Source: an uncultured Candidatus Actinomarina sp. (GTDB taxonomy: Bacteria; Actinomycetota; Acidimicrobiia; Actinomarinales; Actinomarinaceae). From it: 64,000 bases of DNA. The notes below the pieces were generated by a model that saw only the letters and a program-made list of their open reading frames with translations, had not been told where the DNA came from and ran no database searches. Numbering within the stretch: the first letter of the stretch is position 1; each line of letters starts with the position of its first letter. Made by a program: the position numbers and the translations under genes. Shown one piece after another: positions 1-57,006 of the stretch. The stretch spans positions 39,105-103,104 of the forward strand of contig CACFFJ010000002.1 in assembly GCA_902565645.1 (NCBI GenBank). The letters are read 5' to 3'.

Positions 1-345
1 GCCAGCAAATAAAACTATTAATCCAACAGTGGTCGATAAAACTCTCTGATTTAAATAGTTCAAACAGAGCAGCCCTAGAGGCCCTCCAACTATTCTTCCA
101 AGCAATAAATTTTTCATTGGATACCATCTAATCTCTGATTGTTCCCTTCTGAATATTTTTATTGTTAAAGGAAGAGCTAAGAGACTAAGTAAAACTGGTA
201 CAAGTGCTGGATCTATTTGAACAAGGATTGGTGAAGATAGTACCGCAAAGCCATATCCTAAAATCCCCTGTATGGATGATGCAATAAAGAAGAGGGCTCC
301 AATTAAGAGTATTTCAAATATTGTTAGGTCAAATGGTAAATTCAA
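1..345 (-). CDS. TauE/SafE (TSUP) family membrane transporter, N-terminal part; the gene continues past the window start
   Basis: The minus-strand frame is open from 345 to position 1. Translation from TTG 345-343 reads LNLPFDLTIFEILLIGALFFIASSIQGILGYGFAVLSSPILVQIDPALVPVLLSLLALPL..., which is the glycine-rich N-terminal repeat typical of TauE/SafE permeases. The TTG start overlaps the stop of the upstream SelW-like gene (sequence TTGA). Confidence 0.5.
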   Translation of the reverse strand, partial: MNLPFDLTIFEILLIGALFFIASSIQGILGYGFAVLSSPILVQIDPALVPVLLSLLALPLTIKIFRREQSEIRWYPMKNLLLGRIVGGPLGLLCLNYLNQRVLSTTVGLIVLFAG

Positions 346-578
346 CTAAGAGCTTTTTCTATTAAGCCTAGTATCTCTCCATCTTCTGTATGTCTATCCT
401 TTTCTATTTTTGAAAATATCAAATCACCGTTTAAGTAAAATTCAAATTTTCCACCTGAAGTAGGTATTAAGTCTATAGACTTCACTTCTTGACCGTACTT
501 TTCTAAAATGTCTTCAACCGTACTAACTGCACGGGGTGTGTAGTTTCAAACTACACAAAATTCTAGTTTGATATCCAT
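342..578 (-). CDS. SelW/Rdx-family thiol-oxidoreductase-like protein with in-frame TGA (candidate selenocysteine) in the CxxU motif
   Basis: Manual minus-strand translation from ATG 578-576 gives MDIKLEFCVV[TGA]NYTPRAVSTVEDILEKYGQEVKSIDLIPTSGGKFEFYLNGDLIFSKIEKDRHTEDGEILGLIEKALS* (stop 344-342). The TGA at 546-548 falls exactly on the second redox residue of the Rdx/SelW CxxU/CxxC motif (I-E-[YF]-C-x-x-[UC]). The rest matches the Rdx family (GGxFEV, LIFSK). It is absent from the ORF track because of the internal TGA. Confidence 0.6.
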
Positions 579-941: not shown

Positions 942-1145
942 ATGGATTTAAAATTTAACGTACCTGAAATAAGCTGTGATCATTGTAAAAATACAATTGA
1001 GGAACTATTAAACAGCCAAGAAAATATAGATAGCGCTGTAGTGGATGTACAGAAAAAAGAAGTTTTTGTTTCTTCAAGTAATCAAGTCTCGATTGATGAA
1101 CTAAAAACATTGCTTGATGATCATGGATACACAGTTGTCGAATGA
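942..1145 (+). CDS. copZ: copper chaperone CopZ (heavy-metal-associated domain)
   Basis: 67 aa with an HMA-fold metal-binding motif ISCDHCKNTIE (MxCxxC type), immediately upstream of the P-type ATPase. Confidence 0.75.
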   Translation: MDLKFNVPEISCDHCKNTIEELLNSQENIDSAVVDVQKKEVFVSSSNQVSIDELKTLLDDHGYTVVE

Positions 1146-3181
1146 CGGAAGTCCTCTAACCCTCTCTATTGAGGGAATGACTTGTGCTGCTTGTGCGGCA
1201 AGAATAGAGAGGGTACTTAAGAAAGATGATTCTTTAGAAAGCGTTGCGGTTAATTTCCCATTAAAGAAAGCAATTATAGAGTCTAAAAAATCCATTGATA
1301 TTAATGATGTAATTGAAAAAATTAAATCAATTGGATACTCTGCTGTAGTTTATGAAGAGGTTGAAAACAATGAAAATACACTTGTAAAATTTGTTAAACC
1401 TTTTGTTTCCTTGTTGTTGACAGTAATTTTAAAACCTCTGTTAATTAAAAATGGTTTTACTTATCAGGCAATAGGTATAGCTTTTCTAATAATTTTTGTC
1501 TTCGGATATAGGTTTCATGTATCTGCAGTAAAGAATTTATTAAGATTTAATTTTAATATGGATACCTTGATTTCCATTGGAAGCTTTTCATCATTTATTT
1601 TCGCAATGTTGTCTACAGAGCAGCCTTTGATGTTTCTTGAGACAGGAGCTTATATAGTTTCATTTATATTGATTGGAAAGACAATTGAAGAAATATCAAT
1701 TAAATCTTCTATAGAAATTTCAGATGCTCTTATAGATTTAATTCCTAAAGATGTAAGAGTTTCAAGTGGTAATTATGTAATGAAAAATATTAATGAAGTA
1801 AGTAAAAATGAAGAGATTGTTATATTTCCAGGAGAAGTAATACCTTTAGATGGTGTTGTTGCATCTGGAAGCTCTAGTGTTGATGAAAGTTTAATTACAG
1901 GTGAATCTATACCTGTAGAAAAAAATGAAGAAAGCTTTGTTGTTGCGGGAACAATAAATCTTACTGGTGAGCTTAAAGTAAGAGTTTCAAAAATAAGTGG
2001 AGAGACAACATTTAATTTAATTGAAAAAATGATATTTAATGCACAAACAACAAAACCTTCCGTTCAAAAAAACAATAGATAAAGTTACTCAAGTTTTTGT
2101 TCCTTTTGTTCTCATTATCAGTTTTACAACTTTTCTCTTAAGAATAACTATTTACAATCAAGAAATTTTTGAAGCAATTAAAGTAGCTATATCAGTTTTA
2201 GTAATAGCTTGTCCATGTGCCTTAGGGTTAGCTGTCCCAATTGTTTTATTTAGAACCGCATCTATATCAAATGAAAAAGGTTTTTTATTTAAAAATTTTG
2301 ATTATTTACAAAAATTAACAAAAGTTACTTCGATTGTTTTTGACAAAACTGGAACAATCACTACTGGCATTTTTAAAGTAAAAAGCATTACCTCTAAAAA
2401 TGGTCAAGAAAATGATTCAGTACTTCAATATGTTGCAAGCTTGGAGCAACAATCAAATCATCCTATTGCTAAAAGTATCTTGCTTGAAGCAGAGAGTAAA
2501 GATATACCATTACTCCCTACTTCAGATTTTATAGAAAAAGTTGGTGTGGGCGTTGAAGGAAATGTAGATGGAAAAAGTGTTTCTGTTAGTAAAGCTTTGG
2601 GTGGTGAAAATACTGTAACAACTTTAAATGTAGAAATTGAGAAAAAACAATTTACCATTGAACTGGAAGAGGAATCTCAAATTGATTCAGATTTTATAAA
2701 CAACTTAACAGAAGATTATGAAGTTTCTATCTTGTCAGGTGATAGTTATAAAAAAGTTCAGAAATTTGGAGAGTTGTTAGGAGTCAAAGATTCTCTTGGC
2801 GATCAAACCCCTGAAGACAAAGTTTCATATATAAAAAAACTTCAAAGAGACAGGACAGTTGCATTCTTGGGGGATGGAATTAATGACTCACCAGCTTTAA
2901 AACAAGCCGATGTAGGTATTGCAAGTACTCACAGCACCCAAATAGCTCAAAGTGCGGGAGACATAATTATTCACAAAGGTGGGATAGGTAAAATAATTGA
3001 GATAATTAGTGTTGCTATAAAGTCACAAAATAGAATAAAGCAGAATCTATTTCTAGCTTTTGTCTATAACACAGCAATGATTCCAATAGCCATATCAGGT
3101 AATATTTCACCAAATATGGCTGCCTTGGCTATGGCTGCTTCTAGTGTTTCTGTTGTTTTCAACTCTGCAAGAAAACTATAA
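1114..3181 (+). CDS. copA: copper-translocating P1B-type ATPase CopA, interrupted by a frameshift in an A7 run at 2066-2072
   Basis: ORF 1114-2082 carries an HMA motif GMTCAACAARIE and the actuator TGES (ITGESIPVEK). ORF 2039-3181 carries CPC (IACPCALGLA), the DKTGTIT phosphorylation site and GDGINDSPAL. The two frames join across caaaaaaac (2066-2072): frame 1 reads AQTTKPSVQK, frame 2 reads IDKVTQVFVPF, and together they reconstitute the conserved CopA segment if one A is removed. Confidence 0.8.
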
Positions 3182-18497: not shown

Positions 18498-18540
18498 GAA
18501 GCATGATAAATTTGATGCTTACTTTTAATTATTTAGAAAG

Positions 18541-18614
18541 CGCGCCCGGAGGGAGTCGAACCCCCAACCTTCTGATCCGTAGTCAGATGCTCTATCCAGT
18601 TAAGCTACAGGCGC
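18541..18614 (-). tRNA. tRNA-Arg (anticodon ACG)
   Basis: The reverse complement folds as a cloverleaf: acceptor gcgcctg/cgggcgc, anticodon loop cuACGga, T-arm GGTTCGACTCC. No encoded CCA. Confidence 0.8.
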
Positions 18615-18615
18615 T

Positions 18616-18707
<92 letters not shown>

Positions 18708-18714
18708 AAGTTTG

Positions 18715-18800
18715 CGGAGGGAGTGGGATTCGAACCCACGGTATGGAATACATACAATAGTTTTCAAGACTATCGCCTTCGTCCGCTCGGCCATCCCTCC
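18715..18800 (-). tRNA. tRNA-Ser (anticodon TGA)
   Basis: The reverse complement starts GGAGGGATGGCCGAGCGG. The anticodon loop is cuUGAaa (reads UCA, so not tRNA-Sec) with a long variable arm. Confidence 0.75.
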
Positions 18801-18820
18801 TAAAAGGTTTTATTCTTTTG

Positions 18821-18909
18821 CGGAGGGAGAGGGATTCGAACCCTCGAAGGGGATAAACCCTTACACGCTTTCCAAGCGTGCGCACTAGGCCAGACTATGC
18901 GATCCCTCC
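18821..18909 (-). tRNA. tRNA-Ser (anticodon GGA)
   Basis: The reverse complement starts GGAGGGATCGCATAGTCTGG. The anticodon loop is uuGGAaa with a long variable arm and T-arm GGTTCGAATCC. Confidence 0.75.
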
Positions 18910-26340: not shown

Positions 26341-26360
26341 ACAAATAGAATACCTTATCG

Positions 26361-26433
26361 TGGAGATGATGGGACTTGAACCCACGACCCCCTGCTTGCA
26401 AAGCAGGTGCTCTTCCAACTGAGCTACATCCCC
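26361..26433 (-). tRNA. tRNA-Ala (anticodon TGC)
   Basis: The reverse complement is GGGGATGTAGCTCAGTTGG...anticodon loop uuUGCaa...GGTTCAAGTCCCATCATCTCCA. Confidence 0.8.
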
Positions 26434-26522
26434 TCGCTTTTTATATTATGCCCTGTTTCTTAGTGTAAATGAAAAAATTTTAGAAATATTTCAATTTCTT
26501 TACTAATGTATATATGACGAAA

Positions 26523-26597
26523 GGGCCTATAGCTCAGCCTGGTTAGAGCGCATCCCTGATAAGGATGAGGTCGTTAGTTCAAATCTAACTAGGCCCA
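26523..26597 (+). tRNA. tRNA-Ile (anticodon GAT)
   Basis: GGGCCTATAGCTCAGCCTGGTTAGAGC...anticodon loop cuGAUaa...GGTTCAAATCTAACTAGGCCCA, followed by a T-run. Confidence 0.8.
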
Positions 26598-26602
26598 CTT
26601 TT

Positions 26603-47038: not shown

Positions 47039-47947
47039 CTAACTCCCGCTTTGGTAAACAGATATAAAGCCTAAATAGGAGTTTGCAATTTCTTCTACGG
47101 CTTCTTCTCTCGACTTGCTGCCTTCATGCCAACCTTTTAGTGACTCCCAAAATATAGACCTGCCTATTGCAAAACCCTTATATCCATCTACAGAAGAACC
47201 TGCTCTAAGCCACTCATTAACTTTCTCATCGTTTGCACCTCGTCCAAGGACAACCGCGATAACGTCTTCTCTTCCTCCGTTTTTTATTGATTCTGCAATC
47301 TTTTCACAGTCTTCTTTCGTATCAAGACCCTCTATTTTCCATATGTCAGGGTCGGCTCCTCTTTCCCTCATTTCTTCAACAACCTTAACAGCTAGGTTTG
47401 GTCTAATTTCAGCATCATATCTTGCTTGATCTCCATCAACAGTCTCTAACTGTTCCTCGGTTGCGGGAACTAAAAATTCTAATAGAAACTTCTTTTCATT
47501 ATCAATTATCCAGTCAGAAAGAGTTTTTATTCTGCTACCTTGTATTTCTCTAGCTTCTTCTTCATCGTCGGGATTCCACCTAACCAATATTTTGATAAAG
47601 TCTGCACCAACTTCATTTATCTTTTCACCAAAGTCTTCTCCGTATTCAAAATCAAATATACTTTGGCCAGATTTTTCTACTGGTGCAGCAAATTTTATTC
47701 CATTTTCAATTGCTTTTTTTTGAACGTCTATTCCAAATTGCTCATCTACAAGTATTGCTGGGTCACCACCACTAATCCCTTTTTCTTTGGCTGAGAGGAA
47801 TCCTTCAAAAATTATATTTTTCATTTCTGAAACTCTTAAGACCTCTTCTTTTTCTGGTGGTCTTGCTTCTACGCCAAGTAGGCCTTTGGTTAGTGTTCCT
47901 CTGTGGTCAAAGGCTAAAATATATAAATCGTTTGGATAACCCTTCAT
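47039..47947 (-). CDS. class I aldolase of the LacD/DUF2090 (tagatose-1,6-bisphosphate aldolase-like) family
   Basis: ILAFDHRGTL (compare LacD ALAFDQRGAL), FIKILVRW and AIGRSIFWE blocks parallel LacD. It is operonic with pfk, suggesting it acts as a fructose/tagatose-bisphosphate aldolase. Confidence 0.5.
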   Translation of the reverse strand: MKGYPNDLYILAFDHRGTLTKGLLGVEARPPEKEEVLRVSEMKNIIFEGFLSAKEKGISGGDPAILVDEQFGIDVQKKAIENGIKFAAPVEKSGQSIFDFEYGEDFGEKINEVGADFIKILVRWNPDDEEEAREIQGSRIKTLSDWIIDNEKKFLLEFLVPATEEQLETVDGDQARYDAEIRPNLAVKVVEEMRERGADPDIWKIEGLDTKEDCEKIAESIKNGGREDVIAVVLGRGANDEKVNEWLRAGSSVDGYKGFAIGRSIFWESLKGWHEGSKSREEAVEEIANSYLGFISVYQSGS

Positions 47948-48933
47948 AGTTTAATCTTAAGCTTTTTCTTTTCTCTTTGTGTGTAAAATCTTGATACAAC
48001 AAAGACAAGCAACACTAAAAGCACAATAACTTGAGCTAAAAGCGGAATAACTTGATCACTTTGTGTTTTTTGTTCTTGTTCAAAATATTTATCTGAATAA
48101 ATAATTCCTGGATCCTGTTTTGAGTCAATAATTTCGTTTAAAACATTTAACAAATCAACTGTGTTTATACCCCAGTTGTTAGCTAGATTTTCGTCTAAAA
48201 AATATATATTATTACTTTTTACAGCAATTAGGTTTTTCCAAGATGTTCTTGTAGAAAGGTCTTTATTTAAATAGTCAGAATGACCCACAACTATTAAATC
48301 GGGGTTTGATTCTATTATTTTTTCCTCAGAAATTTCTGGATATCCGCTGCTGTATGGATCTTCTAATTCGTTAGCAATGTTTTTAACACCTAATAGGTTG
48401 TATATTTCTCCAATAAATGAGTTTTTATTTACTGTATATATTCCATAGGTGTAACCAATTTCATGAAAAATTTTAATATCTTTAAATTTTGTGTTTTGAA
48501 GAATCGTGCTTACGTCCTCTCTCATGGAAGAGATTAGGTTCTTTGCCTCGTTCTCTTTATGAATTAAATTTCCGATTATTTCAATTTGTGAATATACGTC
48601 TTCAAAGTTCCTTGCAGGAGGAAGTAGTGCATATTTCATTTCCTTCCTTTCTAAATCGGTGACTATTTCATTAATATCAAAAGCTATTAATACTACATCT
48701 GGATTTAGTTCTAAAATTTCATCTGTGGTTGCTGTAAATGCATCTATTTTCTTAACTGTTTCTGGGGTTTGTGAAAAAGAATCAGCACCCACCAGCAGCT
48801 CACCTCCTCCAAGAGCTTGTACAATCTCTGTGTGTGTTGTGGATAGACTAACTATCTTTAACTTATCTACTTTCTCTGAGTTAAGTGAACATGCTGAAAG
48901 AACCAAAGTGAGAAATAATAGCTTCTTTTTCAT
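47944..48933 (-). CDS. BtuF/FepB-type (TroA-fold) ABC substrate-binding lipoprotein, with an additional C-terminal TM anchor
   Basis: Lipoprotein signal MKKKLLFLTLVLSACS (start ATG 48933 with AGGAAA upstream; the track starts at GTG 48951). KIVSLSTTHTEIVQALG ... LVGADSFS is the BtuF-like N-lobe. A cobalamin riboswitch lies upstream. Confidence 0.65.
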   Translation of the reverse strand: MKKKLLFLTLVLSACSLNSEKVDKLKIVSLSTTHTEIVQALGGGELLVGADSFSQTPETVKKIDAFTATTDEILELNPDVVLIAFDINEIVTDLERKEMKYALLPPARNFEDVYSQIEIIGNLIHKENEAKNLISSMREDVSTILQNTKFKDIKIFHEIGYTYGIYTVNKNSFIGEIYNLLGVKNIANELEDPYSSGYPEISEEKIIESNPDLIVVGHSDYLNKDLSTRTSWKNLIAVKSNNIYFLDENLANNWGINTVDLLNVLNEIIDSKQDPGIIYSDKYFEQEQKTQSDQVIPLLAQVIVLLVLLVFVVSRFYTQREKKKLKIKL

Positions 48934-48974
48934 AATTTCCTTTCTCACCACAAGAAGAAAGCTGGGAACCCCAA

Positions 48975-49090
48975 CCCTTCTCTCGAGGTTTGTTGTTTCA
49001 AAAACAAAAAAGTCGACCTGACTTATCTTTCGAATTACAGTTGCGGGACAGTCTCAGATTTTCACTGACTTCGCTTCTTTGCTTTATTCG
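48975..49090 (-). promoter_or_regulatory. cobalamin (B12) riboswitch
   Basis: The minus-strand sequence ...AGUGAAAAUCUGAGACUGUCCCGCAACUGUAAuucgaaagauAAGUCAGGucgac contains the conserved GGUG.AA.UCC...CCCGC..CUGUAA core and the AGUCAGG B12 box, followed by a U-rich terminator-like expression platform. Confidence 0.65.
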
Positions 49091-49109
49091 TTAGAAAAAG
49101 TGTAGCAAA

Positions 49110-55689: not shown

Positions 55690-57006
55690 TCAAGTAAAAC
55701 TAATTGTTTTTAACTTATTGTCGAAAGTGTTGATTTCATTTAAAAACAAAGAAGAAGCAGCGGTTTTCTTCAAACAAGACAAGACAGTAGAGTGAGAACG
55801 ACCACCAAGAAAGAGGCCTATTTGAGAAAGAGAAAGGTCGGTGTGTTTTCTCAACAAAGCAATACACAAATGTCTAGCTCCACTAACAGGAGCACTCCTG
55901 TTTTTAGAAACAACCAATTTTTTATCTACCTGATAAACACCCGAAGCATAATCTAAGATAAAATCAGGTGTTAGGTAGGCTGTTGTATTTTTCTTAGCCT
56001 CCGAAACAAGATTAACGATATACCCCGAGTTACCAACACCGGTTTGTTTGTTTATTACAAGATTGTTCACAATACCATTAATATCTCTAAAACTACTAAC
56101 CTCTACAAGAAGAAGGTCTGAAATTTCTTTTTTTGTTAACAAAACACCACCGTGCTCTTTGTTTTTTTGATTCAACATTGTTTCAAACATTTCTTGGTCT
56201 GGTTTACCTATGTCGGTAACTAAACCGTTTAAAACTCTAGATATTAACCTTTCTGGAAAACCAAGGAGGTTTTGAGGTTTTTGATCAGAGACCAAGACAA
56301 CAGCCTTGTTGTTGTTTAAAAAATAATTAATTGTATGAAACAACTCTTCCGAAACACCCTTCTTTCCGACAAAGAACTGTATGTCATCTATTAACAAAAC
56401 ATCAACAGAGCGAATTTTGTTCTTAAATAAATCAATGTCTTTATTTTTAATTCCGCTTATATAAGACTCTAGAAACGACTCTGAATCTATATAATATGAA
56501 GACCCGGAAGACTCTTCCATTGTTTTTAATAAATGTGTTTTACCGACACCGGGGTCACCATGGACAAAAAGAGGGTTAAACCTTTTTCCAGGTTCGATAA
56601 CAATGTTTTTAGCAGCAGTTACAGCTAAATTATTAGAGACACCAACTAAAAGGTTTTCAAAAACAGAAAGATCTGCGGACTTCTTTTTAGGAGAAAACAC
56701 CTCCTCCTTGTAAACAACTTCATCTTTAACTTCATCCACAAAAGACAAATTTTTATTTACAGATTTATTTTTTTTGTCTAAAACAAAAACACAATCATCA
56801 TAACCACTAACGTCTTTATAAACACTCTTAATTGTTTTAAAAAGCTTCTTTTCTATTGAGCTTTTAACAAAATCAGAATCTACATATAAACTAAGTTCTT
56901 TTCCGTTGTTTGTTCTAAAACTAACCTGGTCCAACCAATATTTATCAGTCTTAGAAAGCGGTTCTTCTAAAATTTTTTCTTTAAAATCTAAAAGCTTTTG
57001 ATTCAC
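55690..57006 (-). CDS. dnaA: chromosomal replication initiator DnaA
   Basis: AAA+ Walker A GDPGVGKTHLL, sensor motifs, C-terminal HTH DNA-binding domain (...RSHSTVLSCLKK); 438 aa. Confidence 0.95.
   Translation of the reverse strand: MNQKLLDFKEKILEEPLSKTDKYWLDQVSFRTNNGKELSLYVDSDFVKSSIEKKLFKTIKSVYKDVSGYDDCVFVLDKKNKSVNKNLSFVDEVKDEVVYKEEVFSPKKKSADLSVFENLLVGVSNNLAVTAAKNIVIEPGKRFNPLFVHGDPGVGKTHLLKTMEESSGSSYYIDSESFLESYISGIKNKDIDLFKNKIRSVDVLLIDDIQFFVGKKGVSEELFHTINYFLNNNKAVVLVSDQKPQNLLGFPERLISRVLNGLVTDIGKPDQEMFETMLNQKNKEHGGVLLTKKEISDLLLVEVSSFRDINGIVNNLVINKQTGVGNSGYIVNLVSEAKKNTTAYLTPDFILDYASGVYQVDKKLVVSKNRSAPVSGARHLCIALLRKHTDLSLSQIGLFLGGRSHSTVLSCLKKTAASSLFLNEINTFDNKLKTISFT

Follow-up and report, generated by a model that had tools for sequence, protein, structure and literature searches.

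A SelW/Rdx-family gene of Candidatus Actinomarina with a probable selenocysteine codon and a conserved transporter-gene overlap

The window analysed here is a stretch of 64,000 nucleotides from an uncultured Candidatus Actinomarina sp. (contig CACFFJ010000002.1 of assembly GCA_902565645.1). Near its first letter, on the minus strand, lies a frame of 78 codons that runs from an ATG to a TGA stop and is interrupted by a single further TGA at codon 11; a standard listing of open reading frames (ORFs) returns from it only a 47-aa fragment initiated at a GTG (342-485). Does the UGA at codon 11 end a broken gene, or does it encode selenocysteine (Sec) in an intact one? A sequence-only reading of the locus had proposed the latter, naming a selenoprotein of the SelW/Rdx family with a selenocysteine insertion sequence (SECIS) hairpin just downstream of the UGA. 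We conclude that this is almost certainly a real 78-residue SelW-like gene in which the in-frame UGA encodes Sec. The fuller reading, that of a SelW/Rdx oxidoreductase whose UGA-11 is decoded as Sec by way of the SECIS hairpin and whose gene is coupled through a TTGA junction to a TSUP transporter gene, has in our estimate a probability of about 0.92. Coordinates of the features discussed are collected in Table 1.

The gene, its family and its fold

With the internal UGA taken as an amino acid, the frame translates as MDIKLEFCVV, the UGA residue and then NYTPRAVSTVEDILEKYGQEVKSIDLIPTSGGKFEFYLNGDLIFSKIEKDRHTEDGEILGLIEKALS up to the stop codon, the product ending in KALS. When Cys is substituted at the UGA, the protein matches the Pfam family PF10262 (Rdx) at 61.7 bits against a cut-off of 22.6, over residues 3-74 of 78, and the NCBIfam model TIGR02174 (CXXU_selWTH) at 57.2 bits against a cut-off of 34.2. 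The top-scoring NCBIfam model is NF041051 (SelTWH_Campy; 76.2 bits, residues 3-73) and, because this score is under the 88-bit cut-off of the model, we do not place the protein in that equivalog. Among sequences of solved structure the closest are bacterial SelW-related proteins, led by 2fa8 (E=5e-7) and followed by 2p0g, 2ojl and 3dex. C8 and the UGA align with the CxxC motif of the solved Rdx proteins (CTQC in 2fa8, CRQC in 2p0g), the UGA falling on the second Cys; neither C8 nor the TGA of codon 11 varies among the 40 distinct homologous sequences. Two of the homologues are annotated by JGI as 'selenoprotein W-related protein'. The family call of the sequence-only reading is upheld by these end-to-end matches above curated cut-offs, and its coordinates and translation, with a sole TGA at the Sec position, are reproduced.

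The fold typical of the family is thioredoxin-like, beta-alpha-beta-beta-beta-alpha. An AlphaFold2 model built on a shallow alignment (pLDDT 65) displays the expected helix-strand-strand-strand-helix order of elements, with the first strand not modelled. When this model is compared with the PDB using Foldseek, the top 18 matches are all bacterial Rdx/SelW-related proteins, with weak scores (E 0.05-0.4, TM ~0.47-0.51). Membership of the SelT/SelW/SelH/Rdx family can be regarded as established by sequence and weakly corroborated by structure. The solved Cys-form Rdx proteins Atu0228 (2fa8), the Vibrio cholerae SelW-related protein (2p0g) and SAV_2001 (3dex) resemble the product in sequence (E 5e-7 to 2e-4) and are also the best structural matches to the model, but they have Cys in place of Sec, exceed it in length by 25-30 residues and are only ~20-30% identical to it.

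Selection on the UGA and on the hairpin downstream

A survey of codon 11 that took in the window, 22 metagenomic contigs and 33 Actinomarina species-representative genomes gave 55 copies of the gene, 40 of them distinct, at 72-100% nucleotide identity. The codon is TGA in all 55, and a Cys form (TGT or TGC), which the sequence-only reading had suggested looking for in relatives, occurs in none of the copies examined. A 47%-identical Gemmatimonadetes homologue likewise has TGA at the corresponding site. Purifying selection acts on both sides of this codon: the ratio of nonsynonymous to synonymous substitution rates (dN/dS, pooled over pairs, with dS ~0.9-1.1) is 0.12 ahead of the TGA (codons 1-10) and, beyond it, 0.150 over codons 12-78 and 0.139 over codons 22-78. 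From the low values downstream of the TGA we conclude that translation continues past it. Within the unannotated gaps of the window, the SelW-like gene is the sole credible TGA-bridged frame.

Protein databases present this gene in two altered forms. A search of 5.8 billion proteins gave 82 relatives, of which the full-length ones have Trp at position 11. These Trp-bearing entries (P0001-P0078) also read the terminal TGA as Trp and continue for 5-14 extra residues to the next non-TGA stop, and when the full-length homologues are translated under table 11, none yields the sequence given in the database. Such entries stem from gene calling with code 4 on short contigs of low GC content, and each Trp therefore marks a TGA. 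Gene calling under code 11 yields the 47-aa fragment (P0079). One further entry (P0080) is a 103-aa call at L085:505-816 (contig CACEZD010000005.1, GCA_902563935.1) that joins the HMA N-terminus of CopA to the C-terminal half of the SelW-like protein; it stands at the very start of a single-cell-genome contig, with its neighbours inverted, and is probably an amplification or assembly chimera.

The hairpin named by the sequence-only reading is present exactly 11 nt after the UGA. Bacterial SECIS (bSECIS) elements are described as a stem of 4-16 bp capped by a loop of 3-9 nt, with a G in the first two loop positions that is usually followed by G or U, a UGA-to-loop distance of 16-37 nt and a minimum free energy of -7.5 kcal/mol or lower (PMC13188914). 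Here the stem has 6 bp, the 5-nt loop AGUUA has G at position 2 followed by U, the UGA-to-loop distance is 17 nt, and the hairpin has a predicted energy of -7.2 kcal/mol when folded by itself and of -8.2 to -8.9 kcal/mol in context. We count the element as a bSECIS on all four points, noting that the bare-hairpin energy is borderline and that two variants reach only -5.8 kcal/mol. The 11-nt spacer equals the spacing of the minimal E. coli SECIS. By itself the hairpin is weak evidence, since a hairpin obeying the SECIS rules at -5 kcal/mol or lower follows 44 of the 2178 UGA triplets in the window (~2%), and it is the comparative data that carry the argument.

In an alignment of 35 sequences (20 distinct rows), 100% of the cells of the helix are paired. 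The closing pair is C-G in 11 distinct rows and U-A in 9, and one G-U pair becomes G-C in 3 distinct rows; as a control, sliding the 3' partners by 1-3 columns gives 0 compensatory cells, and the helix is the only one predicted by RNAalifold. When these changes are placed on a neighbour-joining tree of the remainder of the gene, the switch between C-G and U-A calls for double changes on at least two independent occasions and that from G-U to G-C has three origins, while no C-A or U-G intermediate is found at the closing pair among the 40 sequences. Synonymous sites in the hairpin are frozen as well. R16, A17, V18 and T20, four of the six codons that overlap it, are each written with one codon across the 40 sequences; among conserved codons of at least fourfold degeneracy, 4 of 4 in the hairpin are invariant and 15 of 15 elsewhere vary (Fisher p ~3e-4, by our own arithmetic). 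These observations demonstrate that the hairpin is selected as RNA, and the combination of family match, TGA conservation, covariation and frozen synonymous sites places the SelW call far beyond chance. No SECIS-like hairpin follows the terminal UGA.

In common with E. coli fdhF-type and other bSECIS elements, the hairpin lies directly downstream of the UGA within the coding region and has, close to where its small loop begins, a G followed by a U, and its UGA-to-loop distance is inside the bSECIS range (PMC13188914). It differs from the fdhF-type SECIS in being much shorter, a 6-bp stem without a bulged U or an extended lower helix. The Gemmatimonadetes homologue (L056:1170-1391, from the metagenome-assembled genome JAHFCS010000498.1), which reads IEYCTA-UGA-KYEPRAV, has a different and stronger hairpin with a GGUCU loop, 21 nt past the UGA.

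A second inverted repeat surrounds the codon itself. The sequence-only reading was correct that a palindrome embeds the UGA, but its extent is 537-557 rather than 19 nt at 538-556, and it is not conserved. The predicted energy of this fold is -8.7 kcal/mol here and ~-2 kcal/mol in both the L001 group (90% identical) and the L020 group; pairing across the alignment is 93.9%, with one compensatory G-C to A-U switch against ~13 independent pair-breaking substitutions. The codon pairs TGT/ACA, GTA/TAC and GTT/AAC are mutually reverse complementary, so that the peptide C-V-V-U-N-Y-T can yield such a repeat without selection, and the palindrome is probably incidental. The ideas that it belongs to the SECIS or acts as an anti-termination device were rejected on account of the energy drop and the pair-breaking changes in relatives.

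Table 1. Positions in the window of the SelW-like gene, its decoding signals and adjoining features.
Feature	Positions	Strand	Remarks
SelW/Rdx-family selenoprotein gene	342-578	minus	78 codons and stop; ATG 576-578, stop TGA 342-344; assigned from the translation
In-frame UGA, codon 11, probably read as selenocysteine	546-548	minus	U of the C8-V-V-U11 redox motif
Bacterial SECIS-type hairpin CCGUGC-AGUUA-GUACGG	518-534	minus	6-bp stem, 5-nt loop; starts 11 nt past the UGA
Inverted repeat around the UGA	537-557	minus	9-bp arms, UGA as 3-nt loop; predicted mRNA fold, not conserved
TSUP (TauE/SafE) transporter gene, 5' part	1-345	minus	TTG 343-345; extends past the window edge; Pfam TauE
TTGA junction of the SelW-like and transporter genes	342-345	minus	SelW stop TGA overlaps transporter TTG
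Putative extended -10 promoter element TGATACTAT	585-593	minus	ends 6 nt before the ATG
64-aa Cys/His-rich ORF (C-x4-C ... C-x2-H)	686-880	plus	between copZ and the SelW-like gene; syntenic in relatives

Decoding of the UGA in the host lineage

The gene is predicted to encode an oxidoreductase of 78 residues, thioredoxin-like and with the active site C-x-x-U, that belongs to the SelW/SelT/SelH/Rdx family. With a ribosome at UGA codon 11, the first 11 nt downstream would be inside the ribosome and the 17-nt hairpin would stand at the mRNA entrance. There, we infer, it would bind SelB and so recruit the SelB-GTP-Sec-tRNA(Sec) complex, so that selenium is incorporated as Sec and translation does not terminate; the second UGA, at codon 79, has no hairpin and would act as a true stop.

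The window covers the replication-origin region, with dnaA at 55690-57006 and also dnaN, gyrB, gyrA, parA, parB and trxB. Its GC content is 34.6%, and the genomes nearest to it, both single-cell and metagenome-assembled, are those of Candidatus Actinomarina / OCS155, in agreement with the low-GC actinobacterium to which the sequence-only reading had assigned it. For the selenocysteine machinery of this lineage we rely on the preprint 'Actinomarina, resolved' (bioRxiv 10.64898/2026.04.03.716425, April 2026), since our own attempts to link a sel gene to an Actinomarina assembly failed. According to the preprint, each of 84 complete genomes has selC, selA and selD together with a divergent selB, which answers the concern, raised with the original proposal, that these genes might be absent; the preprint places them ~8-10% of the chromosome from dnaA, i.e. 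outside the window, and counts ~5 selenoproteins predicted by deep-Sep per Actinomarina genome. In its Supplementary Table 8 the positions of selA/selC/selD are ~0.92/0.10/0.08 in 52 genomes and ~0.09/0.89/0.91 in 32. These are mirror-image sets, and the location of selC inside the hypervariable region that is given for 32 of 84 genomes therefore looks like an artefact of genomes oriented inconsistently.

Several results weigh against decoding as Sec. ORF inspection, Pfam, ARAGORN on 35 loci and SelD/SelB motif regular expressions over 0.7 Mb found no tRNA-Sec, selA, selB or selD in the 64-kb window or in ~0.7 Mb of related loci. When the E. coli SelD sequence was compared with the 5.8 billion proteins, the best 120 matches listed were all enterobacterial, and a pattern scan of metagenome DNA (M-R-L-T...G-U-G-x-K) tied no selD to Actinomarina. 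The preprint is not peer-reviewed and its selB is under the profile threshold (10.64898/2026.04.03.716425). Searches with the Rfam SECIS models gave no match, whether at gathering thresholds across the window or at E<=10 over positions 300-700, and the authors of the preprint obtained no match with these models either (10.64898/2026.04.03.716425). The structure model is mediocre, with pLDDT 65 overall and below 50 for residues 1-16. Finally, the preprint contains a family of 78-aa selenoproteins whose sequence is not printed there, so that its identity with the gene in the window is a matter of inference.

A Sec-form SelD of 344 aa, beginning MRLTQFSHGAGUGCK, does occur on marine contigs of 43-44% GC (L058, L059, L061, L063, L065, L066, L068, L071-L075, L077, L083 and L084). 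Its prefix and length fit the Actinomarina selD of the preprint; its GC content does not fit Actinomarina. The tRNA genes of the window include a cluster Arg(ACG)-Ser(GCU)-Ser(UGA)-Ser(GGA) at 18540-18909 (minus strand) and a divergent Ala(UGC)/Ile(GAU) pair at 26360-26598 that adjoins no rRNA gene; none of these is a tRNA-Sec.

Among the other ways of accounting for the UGA, the one that survives best, to which we nevertheless give only a slim chance, is read-through without Sec or with more than Sec, either by insertion of Cys through the Sec machinery at times of selenium shortage or by near-cognate Trp suppression stimulated by the hairpin. The residue inserted is deduced here from sequence, selenium is scarce in the surface ocean, and no sel gene has been tied to the lineage independently of the preprint, all of which would speak for such an outcome. 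Against it, the hairpin matches the geometry and loop rule of a SelB-type SECIS, and the UGA occupies the redox position at which this family has Sec or Cys, the Sec forms exceeding the Cys forms in marine metagenomes by 427 to 56 (Zhang & Gladyshev 2008, PMC2398784). The preprint describes a complete Sec machinery (10.64898/2026.04.03.716425), and a lineage that inserted only Cys would be expected to fix TGT or TGC, which 0 of 55 copies did.

A pseudogene or truncation, in which the TGA terminates translation after 10 codons and the remainder is dead or a separate 47-aa GTG-initiated ORF, is very improbable and effectively already refuted. Standard callers do give exactly that ORF, and the neighbouring CopA gene is frameshifted, so broken genes do occur in the window; but all 55 copies, from 33 species, retain the identical TGA, dN/dS is 0.15 over codons 12-78, a stretch that takes in the 22 codons separating the TGA from the GTG, the match to the family model crosses the TGA, and the hairpin is selected as RNA. 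Barely credible at all is that TGA is a sense codon in this lineage, Trp (code 4) or Gly (code 25), as the Trp at position 11 of all full-length database homologues might suggest: those entries misread the terminal TGA too and are not reproduced under table 11, TGA closes 13 of the 64 long ORFs of this 34.6% GC window (frames that end 1-27 codons later) and is thus an ordinary stop here rather than a sign of an alternative genetic code, the transporter ORF needs the TTGA junction, the Rdx family demands Cys or Sec at this site, and no in-frame TGA was seen at conserved Trp or Gly positions of housekeeping genes.

The transporter junction and the wider family

The transporter gene downstream of the SelW-like gene has 115 residues visible in the window, which match Pfam TauE (PF01925) at 44.5 bits against a cut-off of 32.6, and the gene calls for the downstream transporter on related contigs carry the same domain. 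The TTGA overlap with a TauE/SafE-family gene that the sequence-only reading described is confirmed and, together with a ~245-aa transporter ORF, is conserved in 33 of 33 Actinomarina genomes. The TTG is the only usable start of the transporter: an in-frame stop lies immediately upstream in most genomes, no other start is found for at least 17 codons across the genomes or within 60 codons in the window, and no Shine-Dalgarno-like motif precedes it. Codon 78 of the SelW-like gene always has T as its third base, while the residue varies between Ser, Gly and Asp. The sole TTG start, the lack of a Shine-Dalgarno motif and the fixed T of codon 78 make it likely that the transporter is translated by termination-reinitiation at the codon-79 stop that overlaps the TTG, and in that case its synthesis would need successful read-through of the Sec codon. 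No in-frame TGA occurs inside the TSUP gene in any of the 33 genomes.

With a weak TTG embedded in the stop codon, no Shine-Dalgarno motif and no alternative start, ribosomes could reach the TSUP frame only after UGA-11 has been decoded as Sec. This raises the possibility, which we consider doubtful, that the Sec codon serves as a selenium gate for the transporter and that SelW-TSUP is a dedicated selenium/sulfur-oxyanion module in a 1.1-Mb genome. Were the gate real, transporter synthesis would track the supply of selenium and Sec-tRNA. The substrate of the oxidoreductase would presumably be a thiol/selenol redox partner tied to whichever sulfur or selenium oxyanion the transporter may carry. 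Known TSUP members include sulfite and organosulfonate exporters and a sulfate importer, and their substrates are not predictable from sequence (PMC5840216). We found no SelW-TSUP link in the literature, and no TSUP gene adjoins the Gemmatimonadetes SelW-like gene (L056), the single non-Actinomarina locus. The preprint lists a K07090 selenoprotein group, and the single K07090 entry in its supplement stands in an unrelated table (10.64898/2026.04.03.716425); our guess is that the group may stem from mapping of the SelW ORF onto the overlapping TSUP gene.

On the other side of the gene, the motif TGATA[CG]TAT and the 6 nt that separate it from the SelW ATG are conserved in most genomes, which suggests a leaderless SelW mRNA; a scan of the window for consensus promoters and terminators gave nothing above shuffled background. 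Divergently upstream lie the conserved 64-aa Cys-rich ORF, which has no Pfam or NCBIfam match, copZ and copA. The CopA P-type ATPase (1114-3181, plus strand) is split into two ORFs (1114-2082 and 2039-3181) by a frameshift at ~2066-2078, with one extra base beside an A7 run, and relatives have a single 687-aa ORF; the split may be genuine or may stem from an assembly error in the homopolymer. Further away, an adenosylcobalamin riboswitch (AdoCbl; Rfam RF01482, 53.3 bits against 50) at 48967-49099 (minus strand) lies upstream of a periplasmic-binding-protein-like gene at 47944-48951.

A single variant is recorded in more than 1,200 collection blocks. One homologue is on contig AACY022779708.1 (L016), which by its accession we take to be from marine shotgun data of the Zhang and Gladyshev era. 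The SelW-like selenoproteins of marine metagenomes (PMC2398784) share with the gene described here the CxxU motif, a length of ~80 aa, a marine origin and a large excess of Sec over Cys forms. Those sequences came without a host, whereas our gene belongs to Candidatus Actinomarina and occurs in every one of the 33 species representatives, always joined by TTGA to TSUP. The sequence-only reading overstated the case in calling selenoprotein use in this lineage notable: no selenoprotein family is more abundant in the sea, and the use of Sec by Actinomarina had already been described, together with a 78-aa family of selenoproteins, in the April 2026 preprint (10.64898/2026.04.03.716425). That family has the genus and the length of 78 aa in common with our gene, is the commonest predicted selenoprotein (59 + 35 of 113 genomes) and reportedly escapes standard callers or is cut short by them (10.64898/2026.04.03.716425). 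Judged by length and prevalence, it is very probably the SelW-like gene of the window. In the preprint it is 'uncharacterized', with no UniRef90 hit, KEGG orthology (KO) assignment or SECIS, whereas here we place it in SelW/Rdx and delimit its SECIS with the help of covariation. What is new is therefore the assignment of the 78-aa family, the covariation-supported SECIS, the conserved TTGA/TSUP overlap and the recognition of truncated and spurious-Trp forms in databases.

The most common but uncharacterized selenoprotein of Actinomarina thereby gains a family and a defined SECIS, and the data suggest that this very abundant picoplankton lineage accounts for some of the selenoprotein family that is most abundant in the ocean. 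Public copies of the gene are truncated to 47 aa or mistranslated with Trp, an artefact that could mislead automated annotation. The conserved TTGA-TSUP pairing offers a testable lead on the function of the family in bacteria.

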